Position numbers and translations under genes: made by a program. The notes under the pieces were generated by a model, which was not told the origin of the DNA, made no database searches, and worked only from the letters and a program-made list of their open reading frames with translations. Positions 7,110 through 57,201 of a DNA stretch of 63,059 bases are shown in pieces. Source of the stretch: a virus (lineage: Duplodnaviria > Caudoviricetes); IMG/VR virus record IMGVR_UViG_3300025879_000020, positions 1 through 63,059 of that record, one strand, 5' to 3'. The stretch's first letter is position 1; every line of letters starts with the position of its first letter.

Positions 7110-7532
7110 TTACTTCCTTATAAGCGTATCCCATACCCCTTGGCAGAGCTTTTTGGTGATCCCTTTATATTTTTGCGCTAGTTGCTTGTCTTTAACCCAC
7201 AATACAAGTTGCGCATCTTTTGGGTGGATAGATTCCAGTAGCTCTATGAACATAGCTTCCCTTCGTGCCGCAGGCAATTTCTCGCCTGGACCACCCTTAA
7301 CAAAATAACGTAACGTTGTGGATTTATCCATGAGCGATGCGCTCGGATTCTCCGCTGGGGTATATGGGGGTGTGCCTTTCGGCAGAAGGGAAAAATCGAT
7401 AGAATCGTCGTAAGCACCCTTGATTACATCACGGAGTGCTAAGCAACTGTTATCTGACATGACTTGCTGTTTGTCTACACGTGTTGGTGCTTCAGCTGCC
7501 TTTTCTAGGATTTCAAAAACATGATCAGCCAT
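7110..7532 (-). CDS. Conserved T4-like hypothetical protein
   Basis: LPKGTPPY, RREAMFIELLESIHP motifs; next to rnh. Confidence 0.75.
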   Translation of the reverse strand: MADHVFEILEKAAEAPTRVDKQQVMSDNSCLALRDVIKGAYDDSIDFSLLPKGTPPYTPAENPSASLMDKSTTLRYFVKGGPGEKLPAARREAMFIELLESIHPKDAQLVLWVKDKQLAQKYKGITKKLCQGVWDTLIRK

Positions 7533-7534
7533 TA

Positions 7535-8383
7535 TTAGTAGAACTCCTCAATACATTCAATTAACATTTTACAACGGTTCTTTATTAGGTAATTTAAGAT
7601 CTTCATCTTCGATGCAGGTTTCTTATTCTCAGAGGTATTTATAATTTTTTCCTTTAGAGAGGGTGGCATTTCGGACAGGTCGATCAGCTTTTTGTTACGA
7701 CAATAGTTGCGGTAAACCTCCGAGTCCATGAATGTATCTAGCGACTCAGCGTTTTCCGTGTACGTCTCAAGTTTCTTCTTAGACATAGGACTTTGACGAA
7801 TGCCGTCAACTAATACGTTATCACCCGATAGTACATTCGGGATACCGTCACCAGCGTCACCTTTAAGAATATGCTCGAAAAGGTACTTACGAGGATTCGG
7901 ATCATTAAGATACTTCTTCATCATCGGAGAGTACTGTTTAACATTAGGGTACTTCTGAAGCTGAATGAAGTCTTTATCGGCTGAAACAATCATAACGTCT
8001 TCGTGTTTACCGAACTCTTGAGTCTCTTCAACGAGGGCGCCAATAATATCATCAGCTTCAGCACCCTGAACACGGACAACCTTATATGGGAAATTCTCCT
8101 CGAGGTCTTTGGTTACCTGATTGATAAGTTTGAACAGCTTATCCCAATCACGGTCGTCGTCTTGACGGGACTTCTTGCGATTGGCTTTATACTGCGGGAA
8201 AGAATCCCTACGCCAAGAACCGCCTTCACAGGCAATAACAACCTGTCCGTATTGATTACGGAACATCTTGTTGTACATACGGATGTTGTTTAGGATAAGG
8301 TGACGAATTAGGTCTTCGTCAGTATCCAACCTTTGCGCTAGAACTGCGCCAAGGGCAATACCATTATAATCTATGATTATCAT
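7535..8383 (-). CDS. rnh: T4 RNase H (5'-3' exonuclease)
   Basis: WRR..FPQYKANR, EADDII, SADKDFIQL, GDAGDGIPN. Confidence 0.92.
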   Translation of the reverse strand: MIIIDYNGIALGAVLAQRLDTDEDLIRHLILNNIRMYNKMFRNQYGQVVIACEGGSWRRDSFPQYKANRKKSRQDDDRDWDKLFKLINQVTKDLEENFPYKVVRVQGAEADDIIGALVEETQEFGKHEDVMIVSADKDFIQLQKYPNVKQYSPMMKKYLNDPNPRKYLFEHILKGDAGDGIPNVLSGDNVLVDGIRQSPMSKKKLETYTENAESLDTFMDSEVYRNYCRNKKLIDLSEMPPSLKEKIINTSENKKPASKMKILNYLIKNRCKMLIECIEEFY

Positions 8384-8890: not shown

Positions 8891-9037
8891 TTATTCGTCA
8901 TCTCCGAACATGTTAATAGGTTCTTCGCCTTCCATTTCTGTTCCACAAAAGGGGCAGTATAACACTTCTACTCCATCTTTCTCGTATGAGTATTCGTGTT
9001 CAACTTCGAACTCTAATCCGCAGTTGAAGCAATCCAT
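8891..9037 (-). CDS. Zinc-ribbon microprotein (48 aa)
   Basis: Manual translation MDCFNCG...YCPFCG...DDE*; TAATG coupling to the glutaredoxin gene. Confidence 0.7.
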   Translation of the reverse strand: MDCFNCGLEFEVEHEYSYEKDGVEVLYCPFCGTEMEGEEPINMFGDDE

Positions 9038-9279
9038 TATTCACCTCCGTCATAACGAATCTTTAGCTCTTTAAATCCACCGATATGCTCTACAACCGTT
9101 TCCGCTTCTTCAACTACAGCAAGAGGGACGGAACGAACTTCGGGGAAGGTTTTCATAAAGGCTTCGCGAGTAATGTCAGCGCCAATTTTAACCGCTTCAA
9201 ACTCAATACCCTTATTGGTCAAGAGAGTTTTAGCCATATCGCAATAAGGGCAATTATCCTTGGTGTAGATTTTTATCAT
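9037..9279 (-). CDS. nrdC: Glutaredoxin
   Basis: CPYC, SVP, IGG; follows nrdB. Confidence 0.9.
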   Translation of the reverse strand: MIKIYTKDNCPYCDMAKTLLTNKGIEFEAVKIGADITREAFMKTFPEVRSVPLAVVEEAETVVEHIGGFKELKIRYDGGE

Positions 9280-10415
9280 AGAGATAATCCTTTTAAGGTG
9301 TCTTCTGTTACGTCTTGATTAACCCCACCGATGACATATGATGAGATTTCAGTTTCTTGTGGTGCTACTTGTACGTTACCGCCACCAATCCATTTTTCGG
9401 TCCAGGGTAGAGGATTAGCCTTGGGCACTGTGTACGGGCATGGTAGACCAATAGACTTCATGCGTTTACAAGCAATCCATTCTACATAGTCTGCTAGGAG
9501 CTTTTCGTTAAGACCGATCATAGACCCGTCTTTAAACAGGTACTTAGCCCAGCCCTTTTCTTGTTCTACCGCATCAACGAACATCTTAGTAACCATTTCT
9601 TCGCACTCTTTAGAAATCTTCTCAAAGTCCGGATCTTCTTTTACTAGGTTCTTAATGATCTGTTGAGAAGCAGCCAAGTGTGTGTTCTCATCCCGAGCAA
9701 TAAATTTAATAATCTTGGCGTTACCTTCCATCTTCTTGAGTTCAGCAAATGCCCACGAACAAGCAAACGAAACGTAGAAACGAATGCCTTCAAGGATGTT
9801 TACTGAATTCAAGCAGAGCCAGAGCTTCTTCTTTAACTCATAACGGTCTATGTTAACGAAATCCCTCTTTTGACTAACCTTATTCTCGATGGCATACCGA
9901 CCTTCGCCAACTAGGTCGTACCATTTAGCATAATGAATAAAGTCATCGTAATACTTCGAGATATCCGATGCGCAGTCAGTAATCTCTTTAGAATCCGTCA
10001 ACGTATCAAACACCAGAGTTGGGTTAGAATATACGTTGCGAATAATGTGAGTATAACTTCGCGAGTGAATAGTCTCGAAGAAAGACCAAGTCTCAACTAG
10101 AACCTCTAACTCAGGTAGAGATACGTGGGGGAGAAATGCCAAGTTAGGCGATCTCCCTTGTACCGAGTCTAGTAGGATTTGGCGCTTTAGGTTTGAAGTA
10201 AAGATATGCTTCTCGTTGTCAGTTAGGTCTCCGAAGTCCTTGCGATCTTTACTTACGTCAACTTCTTCTGGTCGCCAAAAGAAGCCGAGCATTTTGTCAG
10301 TCAACTTATCATACTGATTATACTTGACCGAATCGTATCTTGCGATATCGACTGCCTCATCAAAGAACATATTAGATTCTAGATGAGAGGTTTCCCTTTT
10401 CTTAAATACGCTCAA
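9276..10415 (-). CDS. nrdB: Ribonucleotide reductase class Ia beta subunit
   Basis: FFWRPEEVD, ETIHSRSY, EGIRFYVSF, RDENTH, VAPQETEISSY. Confidence 0.97.
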   Translation of the reverse strand: MSVFKKRETSHLESNMFFDEAVDIARYDSVKYNQYDKLTDKMLGFFWRPEEVDVSKDRKDFGDLTDNEKHIFTSNLKRQILLDSVQGRSPNLAFLPHVSLPELEVLVETWSFFETIHSRSYTHIIRNVYSNPTLVFDTLTDSKEITDCASDISKYYDDFIHYAKWYDLVGEGRYAIENKVSQKRDFVNIDRYELKKKLWLCLNSVNILEGIRFYVSFACSWAFAELKKMEGNAKIIKFIARDENTHLAASQQIIKNLVKEDPDFEKISKECEEMVTKMFVDAVEQEKGWAKYLFKDGSMIGLNEKLLADYVEWIACKRMKSIGLPCPYTVPKANPLPWTEKWIGGGNVQVAPQETEISSYVIGGVNQDVTEDTLKGLSL

Positions 10416-10426
10416 TATAATTCCCC

Positions 10427-12715
10427 TTAAATCTTACAGCTTTCGCATTCTTCATCGTCGTAATCGACGGCTTCTAATTCCACAGGTTGCCTGTCATAAA
10501 TCTCGCCAGCACCATCAAACGTGTTATTGTAATAAAGTTGTTTGCCACCATACTTATAGAATGTAACAATATCCTTAATAAGCTGAGACATCGGCACCTT
10601 ACCATTCCAGTTTTCTGGGTTGTAGCTAGTGTTGACTGAAATGCCTTGGTCAATATATTTTTGTAATACAGAACACACCATTAGGTAACCTTCGGGAGAA
10701 GGATGATCCCATAGTAGGTCGTATTTATTCTTTAGATGATGTATGCCAGGAACTACCTGAGCCATGACGCCATCTTTAGATTGCTTATAACTTACCAACG
10801 AACGAGGTGGTTCGATACCGTTAGTTGAGTTAGAAATCTGAGCAGAAGTTTCCGCTGGCATTAGAGCCATCAACGTAGAGTTGCGAATACCAGTCATAGC
10901 AAGTTGGTTACGAAGCGATCTCCAGTCCATACGAACCTGCGGTTTGACCAATTCGTCAACGTCAGATTTGTACGTCATATTAGGAGTCACGCCTAATCCA
11001 TACTTAGTCTCGTCAGATTTAGGACAAGCACCCTTTTCAAGAGCAAGATCGGCAGATGCTTTGATTAGGTAGTAAGACCAAGCTTCTGCGTATTCGTCGA
11101 TTATTTCTAGCGCATCTTGATTATACTTTAACCCACGCTTCGCTAGGAAGTATGCTAGGTTGATAATCCCTACACCCAGTGGTCGACGTGCCATGGTTGA
11201 TACCCTAGCTGCGGGAACTGGGTAATCTTGATAGTCGAGGAGTGCATCGAGTGCTCGTACAGCCAGAGCACAGTATTTCTCGAAGTCTTTCGGGTCGTCA
11301 ATGAGTCCCCAGTTGATTGCTGATAGGGTGCAGAGGCTGATCTCCCCCGACTCATCGTTTGCTGATTTGAGTGGTTTCGTAGGTAGGTCGATTTCGCAGC
11401 ATAAATTGGACTGACGAATAGGTGCGACTTTCTCATCGAATGCTCCATGGGTATTAGCGTGGTCGACATTCATAAGATAGATACGACCCGTATCCTTACG
11501 TTCAGTCAAGAAAGACTGGAACAGTTCCATCGCCGGAACTACCTTCTTACGAATAGAAGCCTTACGCTCGTATTTCTCGTACAGTTCTTTAAACTTATCC
11601 TGATCTGAATAGAAAGCGTCGAACAAATCTGGTACGTCGTGTGGGCTGAATAACGTAATGTTACCGCCAGTTAGTAGACGCTCGTACATAGTCTTGTTAA
11701 ACTGGAAACAGTAGTCCATGTGACGTACACGGTTTTCTTCTGTACCCTTGTTATTCTTAAGTACAACTAGGTCTTCAAACTCAAGGTGCCAAGCTGGTAG
11801 GTATACCGTAGCAGCACCGCCACGAACGCCACCTTGCGAGCAAGACTTAACCGAAGCTTGGAATAGCTTTAGGAAAGGGATAAGACCAGTGTGTACAATT
11901 GAACCATCGCCAATACGAGAACCAACCGCACGGATAGCGCCAGCGCCAATACCTATCCCTGCCTTTTTCGAAATATATCGGACGACAGAAGTAGAGGTAG
12001 AGTTAATGCTATCGAGACTATCACCAGACTCAATGAGTACGCATGATGAGAACTGCCTAGTTGGTGTTCGTACTCCAGCCATAATAGGAGTAGGAAGGCT
12101 GATGTAGAAATTAGAAACTGCGTCATAGAATTCCTTAACGTATTTCATACGTGTTTCTATAGGGTAGTCGCTAAACAAAGTTGCTCCGATAAGCATATAT
12201 GCGACTTGCGGAGTTTCGTAAATCTTCTTCGTAGAACGGTCTTGTACAAGGTACTTACCACGGAACTGTTCCATGGCAACGAAAGCGAACTTATCGTCAC
12301 GCTCGTACTTAATGTACTCGTCCATCTCACGGATCTCTAGTTCTGAGTACAGCTCTAGGATCTCCGGATCGTATACACCGTGTTCAATGTTTTTCTTGAT
12401 CAGGTCGATAAGAGGGGAAGGCTGGTATGTGCCATATACCTCTTTTCGAAGTTTATAGTTGACCAATCGAGCAGCAACAAACTGATAGTTTGGAGTGTGC
12501 TCAGAGATCAGCTCAGACGCCGACTTGATCAAAAGTTCGTGAATATCCGACGAGGTAATCAGGTCGTATAGTTGGATATTCGCTTTAATCTCAATTTCAG
12601 ATACGGAAACGCCATTGATGCCGTCCGTTGCCCAGTCTAGGACTCGATGGATTTTGTCGAGTGAAAACATCTCGACCGATCCATCACGCTTAGTGATAGT
12701 GATAAGTTTATTCAT
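10427..12715 (-). CDS. nrdA: Ribonucleotide reductase class Ia alpha subunit
   Basis: ATP-cone KRDG, RQFSSC, SNLCCEI, C-terminal CESCKI. Confidence 0.97.
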   Translation of the reverse strand: MNKLITITKRDGSVEMFSLDKIHRVLDWATDGINGVSVSEIEIKANIQLYDLITSSDIHELLIKSASELISEHTPNYQFVAARLVNYKLRKEVYGTYQPSPLIDLIKKNIEHGVYDPEILELYSELEIREMDEYIKYERDDKFAFVAMEQFRGKYLVQDRSTKKIYETPQVAYMLIGATLFSDYPIETRMKYVKEFYDAVSNFYISLPTPIMAGVRTPTRQFSSCVLIESGDSLDSINSTSTSVVRYISKKAGIGIGAGAIRAVGSRIGDGSIVHTGLIPFLKLFQASVKSCSQGGVRGGAATVYLPAWHLEFEDLVVLKNNKGTEENRVRHMDYCFQFNKTMYERLLTGGNITLFSPHDVPDLFDAFYSDQDKFKELYEKYERKASIRKKVVPAMELFQSFLTERKDTGRIYLMNVDHANTHGAFDEKVAPIRQSNLCCEIDLPTKPLKSANDESGEISLCTLSAINWGLIDDPKDFEKYCALAVRALDALLDYQDYPVPAARVSTMARRPLGVGIINLAYFLAKRGLKYNQDALEIIDEYAEAWSYYLIKASADLALEKGACPKSDETKYGLGVTPNMTYKSDVDELVKPQVRMDWRSLRNQLAMTGIRNSTLMALMPAETSAQISNSTNGIEPPRSLVSYKQSKDGVMAQVVPGIHHLKNKYDLLWDHPSPEGYLMVCSVLQKYIDQGISVNTSYNPENWNGKVPMSQLIKDIVTFYKYGGKQLYYNNTFDGAGEIYDRQPVELEAVDYDDEECESCKI

Positions 12716-15582: not shown

Positions 15583-15924
15583 TTATCCTATGTATAGTTT
15601 GACTATTGCGCCGATTAAGGCAACTACGACTACGTATGTAATCTTATTTAAAATGTTTACGGTATGGGCGTTCTCTCTCGCCAAGTTATCAACTTCATCT
15701 AGGCGCTGCGAAAACCGATTCATACGATCGTAATGATGGTTCATGTTATGTTCAACAGAACCCATACGTTCTTCAGCCCGAGCCAACTTAATCATAGCCT
15801 CGGACAGCTTATCAATCTTGTCCTCAATACGATCTAGGCGGGATTCTTCCCTTTTTACGTGCTCGAACAGTTCTTTACTCATTGATACTTGGTCTTCCTG
15901 GTTCATTAGTAGCCAATCCCGCAA
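15583..15924 (-). CDS. Coiled-coil protein with C-terminal TM (holin/XhlA-like architecture)
   Basis: RLDRIEDKIDKL heptads; hydrophobic C-terminus. Confidence 0.6.
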   Translation of the reverse strand: MRDWLLMNQEDQVSMSKELFEHVKREESRLDRIEDKIDKLSEAMIKLARAEERMGSVEHNMNHHYDRMNRFSQRLDEVDNLARENAHTVNILNKITYVVVVALIGAIVKLYIG

Positions 15925-16196
15925 TTCTTAGTATTTATAATTTCAACTATTAGGGGAGTGAACCCTTTGATTAACCTATGGTACTCCATCTTTGGGATGA
16001 AGTAAACCCCCTTTTCTTCTAACAAGAAAGGTAGACATCCTTCTAGTTGAAGTTGCCAGCCTTGCCCTTCTTTGATTACCAATTCTCTATCTTCTTCGTC
16101 TCTATGCCAGACGTACTCGTCTTGACTTTTATTGACGTCGAAGGTTCGAATAGATCCTTGGTCAGTATATGGCTTACCAGAAATAATCGCCACCAC
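15906..16196 (-). CDS. Cupin-like protein
   Basis: WHRD...IPKMEYHRLIKG. Confidence 0.6.
   Translation of the reverse strand: MVAIISGKPYTDQGSIRTFDVNKSQDEYVWHRDEEDRELVIKEGQGWQLQLEGCLPFLLEEKGVYFIPKMEYHRLIKGFTPLIVEIINTKNCGIGY
15932..15939 (-). promoter_or_regulatory. T4 late promoter
   Basis: TATAAATA. Confidence 0.65.
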
Positions 16197-16551
16197 CCTT
16201 TAGTCCAAGCGATTTAGCATATTTCGGTAATCGACATGCCCAGTAGCCTGGACTCATCTTATCTGTTTTGGTGTCGCAGTTGTGTCGGGCAGCAAAGTTC
16301 TTGGCAGCTTCTTTGTCATTGATCTTAGATGTAAGACCGCCTTGCTTATCTCCGAATTGAATCTTCCGAACGTTACCTGTTTCCGGATCCTTTACATAAA
16401 CAACATACTTCTTACCGTCACCAGAATTACGCTTGGGCGAGTTCAACTCTGGCTCCGCATCTTCCTTGATATACTCTATCATAGGAGAGTCTAGCGGAAC
16501 CATCTTACCGTTGTGTTCGCCAAAGTAACGTTCTTTGAAAGTTTCCATCAT
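16174..16551 (-). CDS. Conserved hypothetical protein with capsid-targeting-like N-terminus
   Basis: METFKERYFGE; KKYVVYV...FG...FAARHNC...GYWAC. Confidence 0.7.
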   Translation of the reverse strand: MMETFKERYFGEHNGKMVPLDSPMIEYIKEDAEPELNSPKRNSGDGKKYVVYVKDPETGNVRKIQFGDKQGGLTSKINDKEAAKNFAARHNCDTKTDKMSPGYWACRLPKYAKSLGLKGGGDYFW

Positions 16552-16787
16552 TTAATACCGTATTTCTTACCGTCTACTTTACGAGCCAAAGTTCTAGCAT
16601 CTACACCATCGATTTGATTAGAGATAACGGCAGCATAGTATTCAATACCGTGTCTTAGTTTGCCGTTCTCTTTAAACTTTCTGTCTAGAACCGTAGTTAG
16701 CATTTCTAATGCGAAGTCGTACTTACGCTTTTTGAAAGAGATAGCAAGAAGCTTCTCTATATCCTGCATAGTAGTATCTTCGTTCAT
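16548..16787 (-). CDS. Hypothetical protein
   Basis: 79 aa ORF inside the cluster. Confidence 0.6.
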   Translation of the reverse strand: MNEDTTMQDIEKLLAISFKKRKYDFALEMLTTVLDRKFKENGKLRHGIEYYAAVISNQIDGVDARTLARKVDGKKYGIK

Positions 16788-16788
16788 T

Positions 16789-17724
16789 TTAGTTTACTTC
16801 TTCTACGAAAGGTAGGACTTCGTACTTACCGCCAACTTTATCAACCTTGTTGCCCATAGCAGCTTTCTTTTCGGCAGCAGCCTTTGACATTGGACCAGTA
16901 GTCTTACCAGACTTACCTTTATCTGGACCAGTGTACTTAACAACGAATTTCTTTCCTTCATTGAGATCCGCTTCTTCCATCATATCTTGCAATTTCATGT
17001 ATTGATCTGATTTAACGAAACCACGATCGACTGGAACTTTATGTTTAGAACCTTTATACACGAATGTGATTGATCTATCGTCTTTCTTAACTTGTGTTCC
17101 ACCATTCTTTTTGATATCTTTTTCTACAGTAGAAACAGCAACTGCGCCTTCATTGAGATCCACTTCTTCTTTCTGAACCTTTCCAAGTTTAACAGTCTTC
17201 CAATCAACACCAGCTACTTTAGCAGCTTTCTTGATAGCTTCTTGAGAATTCCTAGCTCTAACTGGAACCTTCTTTTTAAGTGCAGGAAGTTCTACTGTCC
17301 AAGTGTCCATCATCGCTTCATCGATTTCTACTTCTTCTTTGGCATATATCCCTGTTTTCTTTTTGGGGTCGCCATACTTCTTATCAAGTGCTTTGAACAA
17401 ATCTGCCTTCGACACTACTTTCTTTTTAACTGCCGAATCAGAAGTGCGACCATACATTTTATTCGCCGCATTAGATTGAGCACTTGCCGCACGATAGTTT
17501 TCATCAGCCTGCTCGACTTCTTCTTTCACAAGCTCTAGATCTGATGGTTTGTAATCGATTTGTTTATTGCCAACGGCAACCTTAACAAAGTCTTTACCAA
17601 CGGTTAATACTTTACCAGTCTTTCCGCTTTTCTTACATTTAACAGTACCACCTTCAGGGAACTTACCCGAGTTTTTGGCGATGTCTTTACGAAGACCTTC
17701 ATACAATTCGAAAAAATCTTTCAT
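16789..17724 (-). CDS. Putative head-packaged polyprotein of small basic modules
   Basis: MKDFFELYE start; repeated EE(V/A)(D/E)xxE linkers. Confidence 0.65.
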   Translation of the reverse strand: MKDFFELYEGLRKDIAKNSGKFPEGGTVKCKKSGKTGKVLTVGKDFVKVAVGNKQIDYKPSDLELVKEEVEQADENYRAASAQSNAANKMYGRTSDSAVKKKVVSKADLFKALDKKYGDPKKKTGIYAKEEVEIDEAMMDTWTVELPALKKKVPVRARNSQEAIKKAAKVAGVDWKTVKLGKVQKEEVDLNEGAVAVSTVEKDIKKNGGTQVKKDDRSITFVYKGSKHKVPVDRGFVKSDQYMKLQDMMEEADLNEGKKFVVKYTGPDKGKSGKTTGPMSKAAAEKKAAMGNKVDKVGGKYEVLPFVEEVN

Positions 17725-17727
17725 TTC

Positions 17728-19353
17728 TTATCCCTTATGTTGTTTCCAGAGGTCGGCATCCGCAGTCTTGCGAGTCTTACCGCCCACGATAAATGAATTT
17801 ACACGTGCCAAGCCCCACTGAGTAGGAGTAGTTCCTGGACGATGACCTGTACGCCATGCGGCAACACCACGGTCAAATACCTTCTTGAGGATACCGTATG
17901 AGATACCAGACTTTTCGGCTTTATTCTTTAACGCTTCATCAGTATCTTCGTTGAGCACGCCTTCGAAAGAGGACTCAAATTCTTCGTACGATAAAACCTT
18001 ATTCGGAGTTTTGAAGTTCTTCTTACGCATGATGGTTTTGTTAACCACTTCATACTCGCCATCTTTGTAGTTGATAGCAACAGGCAAGTTTAGGTCAGAA
18101 GCCAAGTCTTTGATAACGGCTTCGTCGTCAGCGTTTTGCTTGATGTTCTTACCCTTATTCTGGGCAATCTTCTTGAACAACTTCTGTAGCTCAGCAACCT
18201 TGATCTCAGGGCTGTTACGTTTATCGTTCATACGATCAACAAAGTGACGAGTAAACTCGACGTCGATATCGAACTTCTGAAGGAGACGGTCGCCGAACTT
18301 CTCTAGGTCGTCAATCTGCTTCTGCGATACTTCTTCGCCAAACATCTTCTTGTACTTCTTAGTGTACTCTGAAGGTTTAGTCTCAGCAGTTGCATCACCA
18401 GGAGCAGGTTTATAAGCATCCGGATCGTCGTCATCCATCTTCGCACCTTTCTCAAAGTGCGAATCGCGAGCCTTCTTAGTAGACTTCGCCTTGATGCCAG
18501 ACATATACTTCTTAGGCTGATCTGTATCTTTATCTTTGGCTTCTTCAATTACTTGAACGTCGGTAACCCACTTACGAGAGCGGATACCGTCAGCAGACTC
18601 AACGATAACATAGTTAGCGCCAAGCATAATAACCTGACCAACCTTATTATCATATTCTACTACGTCGCCTTCCGAAAGTAAATCCCCAGCAACATATGCT
18701 TCTCGTTCTTCAGAAACGGTTTCTAGTTCAACGTGCTGTCGAAATACATGGGACTCGGAAAGACCCATACCTTTACGAACCGCATTGAACAGTTCTTTTG
18801 CTTCTTTAAATCCAGAAGGCAATCCACGAACGAAAGTATCAAAGCTGTTTTCTGAAGCAGCAGCACGCATCTTAGATGCCGACATACCAGTTACGCCTTC
18901 GGCATCTGGATCACGCTCGCCAGCAGATACAACTGAAATCGATTCAAAATCGTAGAATCCATGACGACCATCAACGCCGTTGTACTTGGTTACGAGAGCT
19001 TCGAATTCTTTTACCCTATCAGAACCAACGACCATCGTTACTCGAGTAAACCCTTTATCGTGTAAAGAGGTCATAATGTCGAATACGTTACGAAGCTTCT
19101 TGTCTAGAATAATGTTGCGAGCAGCTTTAGGAAACATCTTCCGCATAAACTTGACTTTGGTTTGGTAGTCAAGTGGGTTCTTCTTAGAGTCCTGAGACTG
19201 AGAAGCATAGATAAAATACTTAGAAGAACCAGCAACCTTAATGACTGCGTCGATTAGCTTCTCGTGACCAACTGTTGGTGGATTGAATCGCCCGAAAGTA
19301 AATACTGCCTCTTCTGGAGCTTCGCTCACATATTGCTTAAACGACTTCATCAT
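17728..19353 (-). CDS. Cytidyltransferase-like (HIGH-family) multidomain protein
   Basis: FGRFNPPTVGH, VVGSDR, GMSASKMR; four more C-terminal modules; MKSFKQYVSE start. Confidence 0.8.
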   Translation of the reverse strand: MMKSFKQYVSEAPEEAVFTFGRFNPPTVGHEKLIDAVIKVAGSSKYFIYASQSQDSKKNPLDYQTKVKFMRKMFPKAARNIILDKKLRNVFDIMTSLHDKGFTRVTMVVGSDRVKEFEALVTKYNGVDGRHGFYDFESISVVSAGERDPDAEGVTGMSASKMRAAASENSFDTFVRGLPSGFKEAKELFNAVRKGMGLSESHVFRQHVELETVSEEREAYVAGDLLSEGDVVEYDNKVGQVIMLGANYVIVESADGIRSRKWVTDVQVIEEAKDKDTDQPKKYMSGIKAKSTKKARDSHFEKGAKMDDDDPDAYKPAPGDATAETKPSEYTKKYKKMFGEEVSQKQIDDLEKFGDRLLQKFDIDVEFTRHFVDRMNDKRNSPEIKVAELQKLFKKIAQNKGKNIKQNADDEAVIKDLASDLNLPVAINYKDGEYEVVNKTIMRKKNFKTPNKVLSYEEFESSFEGVLNEDTDEALKNKAEKSGISYGILKKVFDRGVAAWRTGHRPGTTPTQWGLARVNSFIVGGKTRKTADADLWKQHKG

Positions 19354-19805
19354 GATTCCTTATTCGCCATTCGTTCTTTTTCGTCAGCACGGACTTTCTT
19401 TATTAGCTTCTTAGATATCTTCTCGATAGCACCTTTCTTAGCAGCAACTCGTTTTTCGAGTTCTTTACGAGCAGAGAAGCCAAGTTCAGATTCGTCTTTA
19501 CCCTTCAAGAGTTTTTGCTTGATAACGTTAACTGCTTGTTTACGAGCACGTTTCTCGAGCTTCTCTTTAGAAGCCTTTTTGTTCATAGACTTCTTACGAG
19601 CAAGGGCAATCTTGTTCTTGTTTTTCTTCATGGCTTGCTTTAGCTTCATACGTGCTTGAGCGTCGAGAGCTTCGTCAACAGCAGAATCTTCAGTAGCGAT
19701 ACCGACCATATCTGAATGCTTACGCTTTTGTCTCATGTACTCTAGCCATTCATCATCCGCCATGCGTGGGTCAATCGCCACTACAAAATCTTTAAAGCTG
19801 TACAT
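19350..19805 (-). CDS. Lys/Arg-rich helical protein, probably head-internal
   Basis: MYSFKDF start; very basic after VDEA. Confidence 0.65.
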   Translation of the reverse strand: MYSFKDFVVAIDPRMADDEWLEYMRQKRKHSDMVGIATEDSAVDEALDAQARMKLKQAMKKNKNKIALARKKSMNKKASKEKLEKRARKQAVNVIKQKLLKGKDESELGFSARKELEKRVAAKKGAIEKISKKLIKKVRADEKERMANKES

Positions 19806-19808
19806 TTC

Positions 19809-21050
19809 TTATCCTCGAGAGGGGCTTTCCCAACCCTTAATTACTTCAGGGTCGAAGTTGTTTGTAGAAAATTCCATACGGTCAACCAATTTAACTGCCC
19901 CGCCTTCCATGCGGTCGATAGCTACAAACCCTTCGGCACCTGTTACCTTAAACCCTGTCTTGGTTTTAACGAAAGTGTTAATACCACTAAGGTCGTTTAA
20001 CTTATTTATAACGATTTTCTTAGCACGCTGAATAGCCAGCTGAAGTTCAAACATAGCGACCAGAGAAGCTTTATTCTTAGGGGAAAAGAAAGCAAGGAGA
20101 GCGTCACGCTTTTCGTATTGTGCTTGCTTACCCTTATCCGTCTTACGCTTATCCGCTTCTTTTTGAAACTTGTCTTGGATAAACTTGATCAACCCTTCTG
20201 CGTGCTTCTTGGTATTAGTTATCTCAGTCTTAGCACGAACGAACGAGTTGTTGTACGTCTCGATCATCTTAGGTAGTTCGGGTTCTTTTTCTAACTGTCG
20301 TAACGTATCGCCAGAAATCTTACGGAAAGTCTTACCTGCGAAAGATAGCTCTGTGTTAAGGGCATCGGTCTCTTTCTTGGTCAACGTAGCCTTACCCGAT
20401 AAGTCGTGGTAATCCGCCGATTGAATCCAAGCGTCCGCTGGTATTTTGTACTTAGAAATGTCAACACCAAAAGAGGCTTTCATATCTTCAAACGAAGCGC
20501 CAGAATATGATGTATGGAATACAATACCAACTTTACATTTAGCAACGTGCTTACCAGATTCGGAGTTCTTAGGTAAAGCGTATACAATGGTGTTCGGGTG
20601 GAAAGTTACAAACTCTTCACCGTTAATTGTTTCTTTCTTAAGATCTTCTTTGGTGAACATAATGTCGCCTTGGATAACACCATTAGTGATACCCATTTGA
20701 GACATAGCATCAAACGAAGCCTTCATCTTACGAGCTAGATCGTTTTCCATTTCGGCATCGATCTCGGCATGAGATTTATACACCTTTGGATTCTTAGCAA
20801 AGATACCTTTCTTGGCTACGAAGAACTTTCCGTCTGTAGGGTCGATTCCGCCGAATACTGCTGGCGCACCGTCCCACTTAACTGTAATGTCCGTTGAAGA
20901 TTTTGCGTTACCCGATAACATGTCGCGAATAGAACGGAGAGCCATAATGGCGTCGCGACAACCTTTAACCCCACCGTAGATCACTTGATCTTCGATGTGA
21001 GTCATGTGGGTGTTTTTCTGTTCCGATAGGTATTGTTTAAAACTTAGCAT
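19809..21050 (-). CDS. RNA-ligase-like covalent nucleotidyltransferase-fold protein
   Basis: VKWDG (motif I), QGD, EGFV (IV), VKLV (V); MLSFKQYLSE start. Confidence 0.6.
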   Translation of the reverse strand: MLSFKQYLSEQKNTHMTHIEDQVIYGGVKGCRDAIMALRSIRDMLSGNAKSSTDITVKWDGAPAVFGGIDPTDGKFFVAKKGIFAKNPKVYKSHAEIDAEMENDLARKMKASFDAMSQMGITNGVIQGDIMFTKEDLKKETINGEEFVTFHPNTIVYALPKNSESGKHVAKCKVGIVFHTSYSGASFEDMKASFGVDISKYKIPADAWIQSADYHDLSGKATLTKKETDALNTELSFAGKTFRKISGDTLRQLEKEPELPKMIETYNNSFVRAKTEITNTKKHAEGLIKFIQDKFQKEADKRKTDKGKQAQYEKRDALLAFFSPKNKASLVAMFELQLAIQRAKKIVINKLNDLSGINTFVKTKTGFKVTGAEGFVAIDRMEGGAVKLVDRMEFSTNNFDPEVIKGWESPSRG

Positions 21051-22396
21051 TATGATACCTTACAATGAACAGACGAGAATTCATTTTTCTTAAGAGAGGA
21101 GAAGTAGCAGTCCTTGAGTATGGAAACGTCCGATGACAATAAAATGTCCAGATAGTATGTTAGGAATGCACCACTCTTAAGAGCAATTTGGTCGTCTATG
21201 GGGAACTCGCCGACGTTGTCTTGAACGTTGGAGTTCTTGAGTAGGCGTGGTAGAGTTTTGTTTAGATACGCCATTGGGTCGGTAAAGATCTTACGCTTAT
21301 CAGCTTCAATATCAAAGCCATTTCCTTTTGCTAGTTCCGCAAATGCTTTAGCAGATACCGCACCAAGCTGTACGTTCGAACCCTTCTCGCGACCTTCTAG
21401 GTAGATACGAATCTTACCTTCGTCTGTCACAGAAGCAGCCTTATAACCTGTACGAATCTGGAATCCGGAAGGAGTTCCCTGCGTCATGAAGATGAAGTTC
21501 TTAGCAAATGGGTTGAATATAGTAGGAGCTGGAGCCAGATCGACTTCTGGCAACTCGGTTGCCTTCACAACTTCAAACTTACCACTTTTTCCTTTAGATA
21601 CTTTCTTAAGGGATACGCCAACAATTTCCTTCGAGTCAAACTTAGCTTCGAGGTATGCATTAAACTCAGCCAGAGTCTTCATACCTTTACAGTCAGAGAT
21701 AATCTTAGTCTTGCTGATATTCATAATCCAGATATCGGCAGGGTTCCAGTTATCTTTAAGGTCTTTGAGACCGAGCTTACGTGCGATGTTAATTAGGATA
21801 TTAGAGTCGTTAGATCCGGAGTCAAGGTAAATCTTAGCTCCTTTCATAGAACCCATATTAGAATGGAATGCTTTGTATTGCTCTTGGAACGAGTAGTACC
21901 AGTTCTCGTCAAACTTGTAACCAACCTTCTTAGAAATATCTTCTACCGACATCGGCTTACCCTTCATAGCCGATTCAAAGTATAGGATAGTTCCCATCTC
22001 TTGCTGATCGGTTGACGGGATAGTAACCTCTTCGCCAACTTTAGGTAGTCGACCTGAGCCACGCATACCACCAGAAGGGTAAAGAATAACCTTCACTTTC
22101 TCAGTAGATTTGAAATTCTGACCTGAAGGCGTGAAGCCATACGCTGTCAAATACGGAGATGAAGCAACCTTCTTGATCAGTTGGCTATCAGTAACCTTAA
22201 TTGTTAGTTGTTTGTCTGCTTTCTTGAAGTCGTACTTTGGTTCGATGTAAAAGAACTCGGAATCGTTCTTGTAGTGTTTCTGTAGCAACTGAAAGAACGT
22301 GTAAATCTCTTTGTTCATACCTGTCTTAGAAGGTAGATGTTCGAAGCCGAACCATAGCTTCGTTGCCTCAGAGAGAAACTCCTTGAATGAGTGCAT
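21050..22396 (-). CDS. Putative PD-(D/E)xK-type nuclease
   Basis: QQE, WNPADIW, GVSLKK; MHSFKEFLSE start. Confidence 0.55.
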   Translation of the reverse strand: MHSFKEFLSEATKLWFGFEHLPSKTGMNKEIYTFFQLLQKHYKNDSEFFYIEPKYDFKKADKQLTIKVTDSQLIKKVASSPYLTAYGFTPSGQNFKSTEKVKVILYPSGGMRGSGRLPKVGEEVTIPSTDQQEMGTILYFESAMKGKPMSVEDISKKVGYKFDENWYYSFQEQYKAFHSNMGSMKGAKIYLDSGSNDSNILINIARKLGLKDLKDNWNPADIWIMNISKTKIISDCKGMKTLAEFNAYLEAKFDSKEIVGVSLKKVSKGKSGKFEVVKATELPEVDLAPAPTIFNPFAKNFIFMTQGTPSGFQIRTGYKAASVTDEGKIRIYLEGREKGSNVQLGAVSAKAFAELAKGNGFDIEADKRKIFTDPMAYLNKTLPRLLKNSNVQDNVGEFPIDDQIALKSGAFLTYYLDILLSSDVSILKDCYFSSLKKNEFSSVHCKVS

Positions 22397-22435
22397 GCGT
22401 CAGAATCCCATTTAATAAAACTTTATTGTTAACTA

Positions 22436-22443
22436 TATTTATA
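22436..22443 (-). promoter_or_regulatory. T4 late promoter at the head of the capsid-cargo cluster
   Basis: TATAAATA about 40 nt upstream of the 22396 start. Confidence 0.75.
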
Positions 22444-22480
22444 TAAAAGTAAAGCCCAAGATAGGGCTTTATGGGGTTAT

Positions 22481-53590: not shown

Positions 53591-54916
53591 TTATGCAGCA
53601 GCCATTACGTTCTTCACACCGAAGATACGGAAGTACTGGTTAGCACGATCAGTACCAAGCTCAGAAGCGCCAGCGCCACCCGCAAATGGGTTTGCAACCA
53701 TGCCGTAACGAGTCTTGAAGCCAATCTTAGGCTGGAAAGTCTGCTCGCCAACTGCTTTAACCATAGTCAATGGAACGTATGGGCAGTAGAACATACCAGC
53801 GTCGTAAGGGTTAGCACCACGGTAACCAACAGTCACGTAGTTGATAGTTGCATAAGGATCGATGTAGACCTTCATGCGACCGTTCAATACACCAGCGAAA
53901 GTGTTGCCAGTGTCATCAACGTTCAAGTTGGTAGCCAAAGCGGGAGTGTAGTCCAGAAGACCAGCAGCTGCCAAAGCAGAAGCAACGTCAGAAGAACAGA
54001 TGATGAAGTTACCCTTGCCACGACGAGTGTCTTTAGCAATTGCGTTAGCTTCAAGTTCGATCTTCATGATCAGAGCCTTGTACTTCTCAACAGACCAACG
54101 ACCATCGGTGTCAGCGTCAAGATCGAATAGACCAGCTTTAGCGCCAGTACCTGCGCCAGCAGCAGCAAGTTTAGCTTTCTGGTTTACAGTACGAACCACT
54201 TCACGGTTGATTTCAGCCAAGATCTCTGCAGACAGGATGTTAGCCAACTCAGTTTCAGCGTCCAGACCGTGAACGTTTTTCAGGTCTTGAGCCAATTCCA
54301 TGGTGTACTCAGCTTTCAACGCACGAGTCTTAGCAGTTACGCTAGTACGCTCGATTGAGAACGCCATTTCCTGGAAGTTGTTACCGCCCATGCCGAGCTG
54401 TTCGCCAGCAGCAGTACCCATACCACGACCAACACCGAATGCAGCGTCAACATCAACGTCACCGTCGGTGTTGCCGTCAGCGAAGTCAGCGTCAAGAGAT
54501 GAGCTGTTACCGCCGTGAGCAGAAGTGCCAGTAGAAGCAACGCCAGAGAAGCCAGTGTTAGCTTCGCCGAATAGAGCTTCGCCGCCAGACTGAGTATCGT
54601 AATGAGATTTCATTGCGAAGATCAGACCAGTAGGCTGAGTCATAGGCTGAACGCCAGCGATGTCGTATGCCATTAGGTTAGGCATAGCACGACGCACGAG
54701 GCTGATCAACACAGGGTCGAAGCCAACAGCGCCGCCAGCTACGTTAGTTGTTTCAGTCATGAAAGACTGCTGAGCACGCTCTTCTTGAAGGGCTTTCTCA
54801 GTGTTTTCGAGTAACTGAGCAGTTACAGCTTTACGGTGAGCGTCAGCAATAGGAGCCGCACCTTCAGCTTCGAGGACCGGAGTCCACTTTTCGTTTAATT
54901 TTTCGTTACCAAACAT
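53591..54916 (-). CDS. 23: Major capsid protein gp23
   Basis: GVQPM..PTGLIFAM, ELAQDLK.VHGLDAE, YCPYVPL, GFKTRYG. Confidence 0.98.
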   Translation of the reverse strand: MFGNEKLNEKWTPVLEAEGAAPIADAHRKAVTAQLLENTEKALQEERAQQSFMTETTNVAGGAVGFDPVLISLVRRAMPNLMAYDIAGVQPMTQPTGLIFAMKSHYDTQSGGEALFGEANTGFSGVASTGTSAHGGNSSSLDADFADGNTDGDVDVDAAFGVGRGMGTAAGEQLGMGGNNFQEMAFSIERTSVTAKTRALKAEYTMELAQDLKNVHGLDAETELANILSAEILAEINREVVRTVNQKAKLAAAGAGTGAKAGLFDLDADTDGRWSVEKYKALIMKIELEANAIAKDTRRGKGNFIICSSDVASALAAAGLLDYTPALATNLNVDDTGNTFAGVLNGRMKVYIDPYATINYVTVGYRGANPYDAGMFYCPYVPLTMVKAVGEQTFQPKIGFKTRYGMVANPFAGGAGASELGTDRANQYFRIFGVKNVMAAA

Positions 54917-54937: not shown

Positions 54938-56098
54938 TTACTTAGATTTTAGGGCTTTCAGGTACGCAGCCATAGATGGGCTATGAATCTGCTCTTTGGT
55001 ACCCTCTTGAAGTTCTTCTTGGATGTCAGCGTTTTTAACTTTAAAGTAAGACTCTTTGACGGTTTGTACCTTATCAGTAAAGGTTTCAATATCGTCAAAG
55101 TCTAGGTTCTCAGTCAAGGAACGTAACTTTTCAACTTCGGTTTCTGCCATACCAACAGTTGCTTCACGAATAATATCTTCGCGAGCAAAGTTAGCGACTT
55201 TTTCAGTTAACTCGATGTTCTCGCCGATAGCTTTGTTGAGGTTTTCCTCAAGCTCTTCGTTAGCAGCAGCAAGTTCGTCTACCAAGTCAACCTTAGTTTC
55301 TGGTACTTCGATGTAGTTTTCAACGAAAACAGTTTGAAGCTGGTTGATGAAGTTTTCAGCGATGCTGGCACGTAGACCATTATTAATCGCAACTTCGTTT
55401 TGCTCCATCCAGTTCTCAACCACGTAGTTTAAGTATCCGTCTACTTTTTCTACAAGATCGCTATGTACGGTTTCTACTTGCTGAGCAAGCTTCTCTTCGT
55501 AGCTCTCTTCCAGTTTTTCGATTTCGGCAGAAAGTTTAGATTTAACAGCAGCTTCAAAGATAACGGCAGCTTTGTCTTTGAAACCTTCAGTCAGGTCAGC
55601 TTCTTCAGAGACAAGGGCATCCAAGTCTTCTTCAAAGTTAAACTTAACTTCTGGCTCAACAGATTCAGCAACAGCTTCTTCTTCAACTACTACTTCTTCA
55701 GACATAACCTTAGTGTAGGCTGTCGTCAAGTCGTCTTTGCTCATTTCAGACAAAGTGTCGAACATAGCTTTCATCATACCAGCTTTAGTAGTAGGCACTT
55801 CTGCTGATTCTTTAGCCATCTTCTTAGACTCAGTTTTCTTCTTAGACTCGGCAGGCTCTTCGTCCTCATCCCCGTCTTCGTCGTCTTCGTCATCTTCTTC
55901 GTCATCATCGTCGTCCTCGACTTCGCCCTCTTCGTCGTCTACTTCGACTTCGGCTTCTTTTTCTTCAGCCTTTTTCTTAGCAGCTTCGGAGAGTTCCTCG
56001 TCAACTTCAACGTCTTCAGCAACTGTTTCCAATTGCTCTTCATTGATGTCTTCAATGAGATCAACTTCTTGATCTTGAATTTCTTCAGACATGTTCAC
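54938..56098 (-). CDS. 22: Prohead core scaffold gp22
   Basis: IFEAAV, VDGYLNYVVE.W; acidic N-terminus. Confidence 0.92.
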   Translation of the reverse strand: MNMSEEIQDQEVDLIEDINEEQLETVAEDVEVDEELSEAAKKKAEEKEAEVEVDDEEGEVEDDDDDEEDDEDDEDGDEDEEPAESKKKTESKKMAKESAEVPTTKAGMMKAMFDTLSEMSKDDLTTAYTKVMSEEVVVEEEAVAESVEPEVKFNFEEDLDALVSEEADLTEGFKDKAAVIFEAAVKSKLSAEIEKLEESYEEKLAQQVETVHSDLVEKVDGYLNYVVENWMEQNEVAINNGLRASIAENFINQLQTVFVENYIEVPETKVDLVDELAAANEELEENLNKAIGENIELTEKVANFAREDIIREATVGMAETEVEKLRSLTENLDFDDIETFTDKVQTVKESYFKVKNADIQEELQEGTKEQIHSPSMAAYLKALKSK

Positions 56099-56111: not shown

Positions 56112-56762
56112 TTAAAGTTTCGAGAGGAAATCTTGGAACACACGGATCTGGGCTTCAGCCAAGTCCGCTTTAGATGCTCTTTTGATCTCAGTCTCATACT
56201 TTTCAATTTCTTGCGCTTTGAGAATACCGTTATCCCAAACCCAATCCACACCTTCCATGATGCCATTTACAAAGGCTTCTGGTGCGCTGGGGTCTTGTAC
56301 GATGTCGACAGTAGAAAGCATAAAATCTTCCTTAACGTACATCGCACCTTCGCGACGCTCAAGACTACCCATACCACGACTTGAGACGCCTAACTGACAT
56401 CCGCCATCGACAAGACCCTTTACGATCTTACCCATAGGAGTATCCAGTATCAACGCCTTCCCGATCACATTAGAGCCTTCAATACGAAGGTCGGTAATGC
56501 GATGCGAAACTTTATCTAGGTTTACAGTTGGACCATCTGGGTGGTTTAGTTCCCCAACTGCACGACCTTTCTTAACTTGTTCGTTTACATATTTTTCTAC
56601 TGCAGGACCCAAAACCGACATGGGGTAAACACGACCATTGCGGTTTTTCTTATCGCCCTGCATAAAGATACCTTCTATATATACCTTCTTTTCGCCCTTT
56701 TCGGTGGCTTCGGTAATATAGCTTAGATTTATATCTTCATTGTGTTCTGTTATTAGCTTCAT
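56112..56762 (-). CDS. 21: Prohead protease gp21
   Basis: NRNGRVY, GELNHP, GVSSRG.GS, DPS. Confidence 0.96.
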   Translation of the reverse strand: MKLITEHNEDINLSYITEATEKGEKKVYIEGIFMQGDKKNRNGRVYPMSVLGPAVEKYVNEQVKKGRAVGELNHPDGPTVNLDKVSHRITDLRIEGSNVIGKALILDTPMGKIVKGLVDGGCQLGVSSRGMGSLERREGAMYVKEDFMLSTVDIVQDPSAPEAFVNGIMEGVDWVWDNGILKAQEIEKYETEIKRASKADLAEAQIRVFQDFLSKL

Positions 56763-56763
56763 C

Positions 56764-56997
56764 TTACTTACCCATTAGGTCGGCGAATTCTTTGGCAGAA
56801 GCTTCTGCTTCTTTTTCCGACTTATATTCGTCTAACTTGGTGCCGTCGATGTAGACCATAAACTTGGAGCCTTTCTTGGTAATCAAGGCATCGACCTTTG
56901 ATTTACCAACGGTAAACTCTTTGACCTTTTTCTCTCCAGAAGGGACTTTAGTCTTCGCTTCCGAGAGATTCGTCATCAGTTGCTTGAATGTCAACAT
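56764..56997 (-). CDS. Prohead core protein (gp68-like)
   Basis: Synteny; MLTFKQLMTNLSE start. Confidence 0.6.
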   Translation of the reverse strand: MLTFKQLMTNLSEAKTKVPSGEKKVKEFTVGKSKVDALITKKGSKFMVYIDGTKLDEYKSEKEAEASAKEFADLMGK

Positions 56998-57169
56998 CGT
57001 CCTCACCTGTAGTTGCGTTATAAATCGAGGCAGCAACGTCGATCCGCTTACTGTCCAGTGCTGCGGAAACCTTCGTTGCCATCACAGCATCAAAGGTTGC
57101 TTTCGTCGCTTCATCGTCGCCCGTTTGAAGGGCTGAAATTAAATCAGTAACATTGCTCATAATAATCAC
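56948..57169 (-). CDS. Prohead core protein (gp67-like)
   Basis: Synteny after the portal gene; acidic tail. Confidence 0.6.
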   Translation of the reverse strand: MIIMSNVTDLISALQTGDDEATKATFDAVMATKVSAALDSKRIDVAASIYNATTGEDDVDIQATDDESLGSED

Positions 57170-57181
57170 CTTTTATACACT

Positions 57182-57189
57182 TATTTATA
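57182..57189 (-). promoter_or_regulatory. T4 late promoter
   Basis: TATAAATA upstream of the gp67-like gene. Confidence 0.8.
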
Positions 57190-57201
57190 CTAAAGTGGTT
57201 T

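Follow-up and report, generated by a model that had tools for sequence, protein, structure and literature searches.

Several proteins of one gene cluster in a 63,059-base stretch of viral DNA (positions 1 to 63,059 of IMG/VR virus record IMGVR_UViG_3300025879_000020; Duplodnaviria, Caudoviricetes; the window hereafter) start with variants of one short N-terminus, which we call the leader. This leader is quite probably a capsid-targeting propeptide of the type carried by the internal proteins of phage T4. It shares positions 4, 7, 8 and 10 with the T4 signal, a gp21-type protease and a gp22-type scaffold are encoded in the same DNA, and tagged homologues occur in virion proteomes of relatives, which bears out the T4-type leader proposed in a sequence-only reading of this DNA. 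The cluster is laid out as follows (coordinates of the window, amino acids as aa):

22436..22443, minus strand: TATAAATA box, a T4-type late-promoter motif, about 40 nt 5′ of the first ATG of the cluster, with a hairpin directly before it
21050..22396, minus strand: P1, 448 aa, basic; leader MHSFKEFLSE, cleavage predicted after Glu10
19809..21050, minus strand: P2, 413 aa, DUF6267, ligase-like; leader MLSFKQYLSE, cleavage predicted after Glu10
19350..19805, minus strand: P3, 151 aa, 21% Lys, isoelectric point (pI) 10.05; leader MYSFKDFVVA, targeting half only, without Glu10
17728..19350, minus strand: P4, 540 aa; leader MKSFKQYVSE; N-terminal cytidylyltransferase-like (HxGH) domain, middle region, C-terminal DUF5824
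16789..17724, minus strand: P5, 311 aa, Lys-rich; weak leader MKDFFELYE (start MKDFFELYEGL)
16548..16787, minus strand: P6, 79 aa, basic; no leader
16174..16548, minus strand: P7, 124 aa, basic; weak leader METFKERYFGE

The leader consensus is M-x-x-[F/Y]-x-x-[F/Y]-[L/I/V]-x-E. All seven N-termini quoted in the sequence-only reading are present on the minus strand, in a cluster that follows the TATAAATA box at 22436-22443. Its picture of near-consecutive tagged open reading frames (ORFs) stood for P1-P4 and for a 77-aa protein encoded elsewhere in the window, and was less good for the starts MKDFFELYE and METFKERYFGE, which are weaker, and for the 79-aa gene at 16548-16787, which is untagged. 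Two ORFs were called with double Met starts, that of P4 (17728-19353) as MMKSFKQYVSE and that of P7 (16174-16551) as MMETFKERYFGE. The second Met is the likely start of both, because a database protein identical to P4 has 540 aa and a homologue of P7 begins MESFKERYFGE.

To look for the leader we used the pattern M.[ST][YF][QK][EDQ][FY][ILV].E, a conservative generalisation of the common start of T4 ipII and ipIII, both of which begin MKTYQEFIAE (NC_000866). Only three matches were obtained in the whole six-frame translation of the window, all of them at residue 1 of P1, P2 and P4 (448, 413 and 540 aa); the scan of N-termini suggested by the sequence-only reading thus picked 3 of the 87 called ORFs, all in the cluster. 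With the shorter pattern M.[ST][YF][QK], 6 of 7 six-frame matches were starts of the genes noted here. The copies vary in their synonymous codons, with Ser encoded by TCA, AGT, AGC or TCG and Leu by CTC or CTA, showing that the leader is a protein-level motif and not a DNA repeat. A chance origin of the leader matches in the window is excluded.

The T4 signal is the capsid targeting sequence of Mullaney and Black (1996), treated in PMC9026906 and PMC3012670; its properties are described in the available text of the former, a T4 review. The first ten residues of IPIII are enough for encapsidation; residues 4 and 7 mainly govern targeting and residues 8 and 10 processing (section 2.6), and Asp at position 10 stops processing while targeting is still allowed. 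The same review considers that the signal may be a general means for T4-like phages to load varied proteins. As in T4 IPI, IPII and IPIII, the window leader is an N-terminal propeptide of about 10 residues which matches MKTYQEFIAE at aromatic-4, aromatic-7, aliphatic-8 and Glu-10. F4 is present in P1, P2, P3, P4 and the 77-aa protein, and position 7 is F or Y in P1-P4 and L in the 77-aa protein. The processing determinants aliphatic-8 and Glu-10 are found in P1 (LSE), P2 (LSE) and P4 (VSE), with LSE at 11-13 in the 77-aa protein. P3, without Glu10, would be packaged but left uncut, by analogy with the T4 Asp10 variant. The leader lies outside the fold, as judged by a predicted local distance difference test score (pLDDT) below 50 at residues 1-8 of P1 and 1-17 of P2 in the predicted models, and the Pfam match to DUF6267 in P2 begins at residue 13, after the leader.

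The remaining tagged gene and the presumptive head-assembly partners of the leader are also encoded in the window:

56764..56997, minus strand: 77-aa protein between portal and prohead protease, basic, 21% Lys; leader MLTFKQLMTNLSE
56112..56762, minus strand: gp21-type prohead maturation protease (phrog_207, head maturation protease, E = 1.7e-82)
54938..56092, minus strand: gp22-type scaffolding protein (phrog_237, head scaffolding protein, E = 2e-72)

The 77-aa gene had been called gp68-like. Its position between portal and protease agrees with this name and its sequence does not: BLASTP against T4 gp68 gave E = 3.7, and neither a PHROG family nor meaningful similarity to T4 IPIII was found. 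Its identification as gp68 was rejected, the portal-protease position being all that the two have in common; the product looks like an internal-protein-like protein in the gp67/68 position.

We then examined how far the leader is conserved among database homologues, in counts that take in the window's own proteins. The strict pattern heads 25 of 52 P1-family proteins, 109 of 120 DUF6267 proteins and 56 of 120 cytidylyltransferases; a relaxed pattern allowing offsets raises these figures to 38, 113 and 102, respectively. Among the 102 DUF6267 homologues with Glu10, no change is seen at F4 or E10, position 7 is Y or F in 100 and position 8 is L or I in all, while positions 2, 3, 5, 6 and 9 vary freely.

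A wider survey covered 80 IMG/VR loci encoding a P1 relative (1.0 Mb, 1219 ORFs). The leader heads 118 of these ORFs, against 6 internal matches in 279,282 residues; its Met-less form has 35 internal matches, from which about 1.5 N-terminal ones are expected by chance. After removal of the leader, the 118 tagged proteins fall into 12 families without similarity to each other (sizes 36, 33, 18, 9, 7, 4, 3, 3, 2, 1, 1 and 1). Beyond the DUF6267, P1 and cytidylyltransferase families, the other nine (31 proteins) include a Zeta_toxin/AAA_33-type P-loop kinase and a DUF6321 protein, and one of them starts with a DxDxT-like motif and may, in our reading, be haloacid dehalogenase (HAD)-like. A motif of some ten residues on adjacent genes could in principle reflect chance resemblance, or the remnant of a recent duplication of one 5′ gene end. 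This is already contradicted by the data and we give it virtually no credence: the three six-frame matches in the window are all gene starts and their codons are unlike, tagged starts in related loci vastly outnumber the expectation, and the mature parts belong to 12 unrelated families.

In the complete genome of Methylophilales phage Melnitz, convincing leaders are confined to 10.9-20.5 kb, following a TATAAATA at 10904, and none was found in its block of small ORFs at 29-48 kb. Phage C48C1 (locus L008) shows at least six leader-like starts around its DUF6267/cytidylyltransferase cluster, for example MLSFKQFVSE, MITFKKYLEE and MKKFKQYIDE, on genes that include 1467-2084, 7254-7625, 9028-9300, 10598-10801 and 12265-12582; its cytidylyltransferase is annotated from an internal Met.

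Virion proteomes of two relatives connect the leader with particles. Purified virions of S-SM1 contained the putative cytidylyltransferase T4-GC190 (PMC3037559, section 26), whose gene starts MKKFSAFLNE. For S-CREM2, a virion proteome of 52 proteins has been reported (PMC10665884, Table 3), against which we tested the leader retrospectively over the whole genome (231 called ORFs; 50 of the 52 virion proteins matched, ORF145 and ORF174 being missed). The strict leader occurs on three S-CREM2 ORFs, and all three are in the proteome (one-sided Fisher p = 0.0097): an S-adenosylmethionine (SAM) hydrolase (ORF6), a kinase (ORF14) and a cytidylyltransferase (ORF154). A search of the first 30 residues for the core motif without its Met retrieved five ORFs, of which four are in the proteome (p = 0.0083), ‘Cas9’ ORF12 being added; the fifth encodes 74 aa and is absent from the virion list. 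The non-lysis ‘non-structural’ proteins by which the authors were surprised are precisely these four, as far as the available text of PMC10665884 tells, and no leader is present on neighbours not flagged as virion proteins (gp4, gp5, gp7-11, gp16 and gp18). Both the S-SM1 and the S-CREM2 cytidylyltransferases are of the P4 family, as judged by PHROG and nucleotide matches, and carry the same leader at their start, as do the S-CREM2 SAM hydrolase and kinase. In their available sections, both papers report presence in particles, speculate on delivery and name no targeting signal; the leader seen in the window supplies a candidate mechanism, and the window contributes further cargo families.

In S-CREM2 ORF12 (L092:4705-7314, 869 aa, annotated as a Cas9-like endonuclease), the leader core FASFMAE stands at about residues 19-25. 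Either the start codon was mis-called or the propeptide is longer.

A number of observations weigh against a packaging leader. Packaging in the phage of the window would have to be argued from relatives and from the T4 analogy, and the leader patterns, though anchored on the T4 sequence, were written after the data had been seen. The 80 loci were picked via P1, and 87 of the 118 matches belong to the three query-linked families (DUF6267, P1 and cytidylyltransferase). Within the cluster, P3 has Ala at position 10, P5 and P7 have irregular processing residues and fit poorly, and P6 has no leader at all. One clade of cytidylyltransferase genes is leaderless and starts at the catalytic domain (MSKVVFTFGRMNPP...), as in L013:12962-15100, L017:12961-15099 and L040:4301-6439; the DUF6267 homologue of S-SM1 has no leader, nor does the DUF6267-cytidylyltransferase fusion of S-PM2 (L007:6007-7782), which starts MATQNKHLEHLED. 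In the S-CREM2 proteome, 47 of the 50 matched virion proteins are without leader, which is expected for tail and shell proteins and makes the tag one route among several. Finally, the S-CREM2 authors warn that the CsCl preparation may have contained the enzymes as abundant contaminants (PMC10665884, section 19).

Alternatively, the motif could serve not packaging but some other late-gene need, such as translation initiation, mRNA structure, stability or a common partner, with virion detections reflecting carry-over of the kind the S-CREM2 authors raise in that section; that several family members function without a leader would also be consistent with this. We find this explanation highly unlikely, since conservation acts on amino acids while synonymous codons vary, and the conserved positions are exactly those that count in the T4 signal. 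In addition, the strict motif in S-CREM2 marks virion-found proteins only (3 of 3), and there is no reason to expect abundant late proteins from outside the virion to carry a T4-like propeptide with [L/I/V]-x-E at its end. A cytidylyltransferase encoded by S-PM2 was undetected in the S-PM2 virion, according to PMC3037559; if the gene in question is the leaderless fusion, its non-detection would fit a targeting role of the leader.

Turning to the cargo, the 540-aa P4 had been called a nucleotidyltransferase, and this was upheld: residues 19-117 match PF01467 at 24.2 bits (cutoff 21), DUF5824 is C-terminal, and the PHROG ‘cytidyltransferase’ is matched at E = 1.6e-95. Homologues conserve T26, G28 and H29 (TxGH) and the M156-R162 block (MSASKxR). 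P4 is not matched at the level of the equivalogs for adenylyltransferases of nicotinamide or nicotinic acid mononucleotide (NMN/NaMN), with 16.7 bits for TIGR01526 against a cutoff of 341 and 16.5 for PRK08887 against 164. These two far-sub-threshold NMN adenylyltransferase (NMNAT) matches were the only NCBIfam results for the eight cluster proteins, and such scores indicate a distant family resemblance only. A P4 profile run against PDB sequences returned nothing informative.

For P2 (413 aa), the ‘RNA-ligase-like’ label found moderate support in invariant motif residues and in ligase rows of structure searches. The protein belongs to DUF6267 (Pfam, E = 1.6e-101), and K58-W-D-G61, E373-G374-F375 and K387 are invariant in 22 sequences; we take these to be ligase motifs I (KxDG, with the nucleophilic lysine), IV (EG) and V (K). 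The predicted model is of moderate quality (pLDDT 73). Its top Foldseek rows are ATP-dependent DNA ligases, which are not significant (best E = 0.056). In VIA, short helical matches rank first, and every long alignment below them is with an RNA or tRNA ligase (Z 6.1-6.9 over 146-206 residues, within the tool's stated noise range), including 6n0t (Z 6.9 over 200 residues), 2hvq (Z 6.8 over 146) and 5cot (Z 6.8 over 174). By curated family or sequence, P2 was not identified as a ligase (Pfam gave DUF6267 only, NCBIfam and the PDB profile search nothing). A ligase-like covalent nucleotidyltransferase is plausible for P2 and not proven.

The 448-aa P1, which had been described as nuclease-like, found no real support as such. 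No Pfam family was detected among 26 members, and there was neither a PDB match by sequence profile nor a Foldseek PDB match at E <= 0.001. The lead closest to a nuclease came from the atlas, with the RE_HaeIII and HpaII clusters at 0.82 and 0.81, under its own lead threshold of 0.9, and we refrain from a nuclease assignment. The predicted model is confident (pLDDT 89.5). VIA rows cover residues 22-122 only and are pol-beta-type nucleotidyltransferases with weak scores (Z <= 5.9), the rest of the protein being unmatched; the model suggests a two-domain protein whose N-terminal domain weakly resembles the pol-beta nucleotidyltransferase fold. Against predicted viral structures P1 gave 11 matches at E <= 0.001, mostly to uncharacterised T4-like cyanophage proteins, the named ones being from S-RIM14, P-HM1, S-RIM44, P-TIM68, S-RIM8, P-SSM3, S-H9-2 and one uncultured Caudovirales phage. 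The P1 family is widespread.

The smaller genes are related to P4. Homologues of P3, P5, P6 and P7 form internal or C-terminal modules within the long cytidylyltransferases of relatives (607-1069 aa, for example L016:14199-16562, L013:12962-15100 and L074:12896-16105), so that the window holds a fissioned version of one multi-domain protein. Parts of P5 occur as internal modules, and P6 is homologous to one. P7 corresponds to the cytidylyltransferase C-terminus in other relatives, and its free-standing homologues start MITFKEFLLNE or MISFKEYILNE; the P3 homologue of phage C48C1 starts MLSFKQFVSE. Three of the four split-off pieces carry a leader of their own, whole or in part, which would fit a need to target each free polypeptide separately.

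P1-P7 and the 77-aa protein are all basic (pI 8.7-10.05) and contain 12-21% Lys, against a window median of 7.5%. This composition fits the contacts that T4 internal proteins make with DNA through lysines, as reported in the available text of PMC3012670. It would also suit DNA counter-ions, and the leader might target the prohead core for proteins that act inside the particle only, as core or scaffold accessories or as neutralisers of DNA charge, and are then degraded or inert. Such a role would agree with the absence of a recognisable catalytic domain in P3, P5 and the 77-aa protein and with the annotation of the T4 core proteins at the same genome position as prohead parts. Catalytic-type motifs (KWDG, EG and K in P2; TxGH and MSASKxR in P4) are nevertheless invariant over hundreds of homologues, which argues for a selected enzyme activity. 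Peptides of homologues persist in mature virions, and other tagged cargo includes a SAM hydrolase and kinases, the substrates of which are in the cell and not in the capsid. We therefore regard a purely in-particle role as unlikely.

If the leader is a T4-type propeptide, events could proceed as follows. The cluster would be transcribed late from its TATAAATA box, to judge by the motif. The leader would then dock each protein, via aromatic residues 4 and 7, on the scaffolding core of the assembling prohead, a core that would be formed by the gp22-type scaffold. The gp21-type protease would cut after Glu10, directed by [L/I/V]-x-E at positions 8-10, and the mature basic, Lys-rich proteins would remain inside the head alongside the DNA. 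The cargo would comprise the two-domain P1, the ligase-like P2, the cytidylyltransferase/NMNAT-like P4 with the split-off P3, P5 and P7, and the internal-protein-like 77-aa protein. From the T4 analogy and the virion data of relatives, packaging and cleavage of these proteins would be expected in this phage. Their ejection with the DNA and an early enzymatic action in the host are plausible, with the chances about evenly balanced. A role of the cargo in counter-defence or takeover may likewise be proposed by analogy; the SAM-hydrolase cargo of S-CREM2 also points to ejection and counter-defence; its authors tie the SAM hydrolase to restriction evasion (PMC10665884, section 19, in the text available).

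The resemblance to T4 internal proteins extends beyond the leader. In both cases, a gp21-type protease and a gp22-type scaffold are encoded in the same genome, a late-promoter motif is present, and the mature parts are basic, Lys-rich and mutually unrelated, with only the leader in common. Unlike the T4 internal proteins, which are small inhibitors of 8-20 kDa, the cargo here is mostly large (311-540 aa, and up to 1069 aa in relatives) and enzyme-like, and is encoded in one presumably late gene cluster conserved across marine Kyanoviridae-like phages. The mature parts also have no sequence similarity to the T4 internal proteins, and for the window proteins packaging, cleavage and ejection are predictions.

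Large enzymes in phage heads have precedents. T4 Alt is a large ADP-ribosyltransferase; no domain of this kind was found in the window cargo. Alt is a processed head protein (PMC9026906, in the text available). It gives an example of a large enzyme that is held in the head, trimmed by the prohead protease (gp21), injected together with the DNA and active at the start of infection. The ejection proteins of giant phages have much longer propeptides. In SPN3US and phiKZ-like phages, a T4 gp21-like protease processes many head-internal proteins after Glu, and these proteins enter the host (PMC5694885 and PMC7411985, in the parts available). They belong to a different phage group and were likened to the window proteins by description, the points in common being a related prohead protease and cleavage after Glu.

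A broader reading, which we put forward tentatively and do not favour, is that all marine T4-like phages (Kyanoviridae and heterotroph-infecting relatives) share the leader as a portable loading tag, which would mark a shuffled, injected arsenal that pre-empts abortive-infection defences. Such an arsenal might, again doubtfully, number at least a dozen families, for example ligase-like, NMNAT-like nucleotidyltransferase, P-loop kinase, HAD-like, SAM hydrolase, protein kinase and a large nuclease-like protein. It is conceivable, though we would rather bet against it, that the P2/P4 pair is delivered with the DNA and in relatives is joined by the tagged P-loop kinase and the DxDxT-start protein, forming a ready-made RNA-repair or nucleotide-cofactor-restoring pathway before phage gene expression. 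If the tag were universal in this way, the injected protein set of each phage could be listed from sequence alone.

The mechanism appears to be the known T4 one, with new cargo and a new clade. What appears new is that a distant marine group has conserved the signal, that the signal heads large enzyme-like proteins of a conserved, presumably late cluster, DUF6267 and the core cyanophage ‘cytidylyltransferase’ among them, and that the puzzling enzymes detected in cyanophage virion proteomes are both explained and predicted by it. Our literature search found no paper tying a capsid targeting sequence to cyanophage or pelagiphage proteins, subscription-only papers and supplements being outside that search. 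Cyanophage virion proteomes have repeatedly held cytidylyltransferases, kinases and a SAM hydrolase, and the S-CREM2 authors were unable to tell packaging from contamination for their ‘non-structural’ virion enzymes (PMC10665884, section 19, in the text available). A leader on exactly those enzymes offers an explanation of how they reach the head and allows head cargo to be predicted from sequence alone, and the question of injected proteins becomes answerable from existing genomes and mass-spectrometry raw files. It would also mean that the T4 loading signal has been kept far outside the T-even group, on cargo unrelated to T4 internal proteins, and would make DUF6267 and the ‘cytidylyltransferase’ candidates for very early host manipulation.

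As to the genome setting, nearly all called genes of the window are on the minus strand. They include a T4-type head and tail module (terminase, sheath, tube, portal, prohead protease, scaffold and major capsid gene) as well as replication genes. Among named phages, nucleotide and protein searches place the window closest to Methylophilales phage Melnitz, phage C48C1, Pelagibacter phage HTVC008M and many cyanomyoviruses; those relatives whose records were examined are filed under Kyanoviridae. The motif TATAAATA, which is the T4 late-promoter consensus, has 10 sites in the window, every one of them on the minus (coding) strand; 3.2 are expected, and 10 was reached in 0 of 100 shuffles. The hairpin that precedes the cluster is terminator-like and may close the upstream transcription unit:

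22450..22471, minus strand: terminator-like hairpin, stem of 8 pairs (4 G-C), loop of 6, T-rich tail

In the region 15583-15939, immediately downstream of the cluster, a second TATAAATA (15932-15939) precedes a protein of 107-113 aa with a below-threshold Pfam match to XhlA (haemolysin/holin-like) and a hydrophobic C-terminus, possibly a lysis gene product. Another TATAAATA, at 57182-57189, lies right after the portal stop and about 185 nt 5′ of the tagged 77-aa gene, in a gap (56997-57202) where no ORF was called. The major capsid protein (53591-54916) is short, with 441 aa, and has FMTE some 54 residues from its start. T4 gp23, which is cleaved at FLTE, has this tetrapeptide at about residue 65; the FMTE of the window protein is likely a prohead-protease site and resembles the ends of the leaders.

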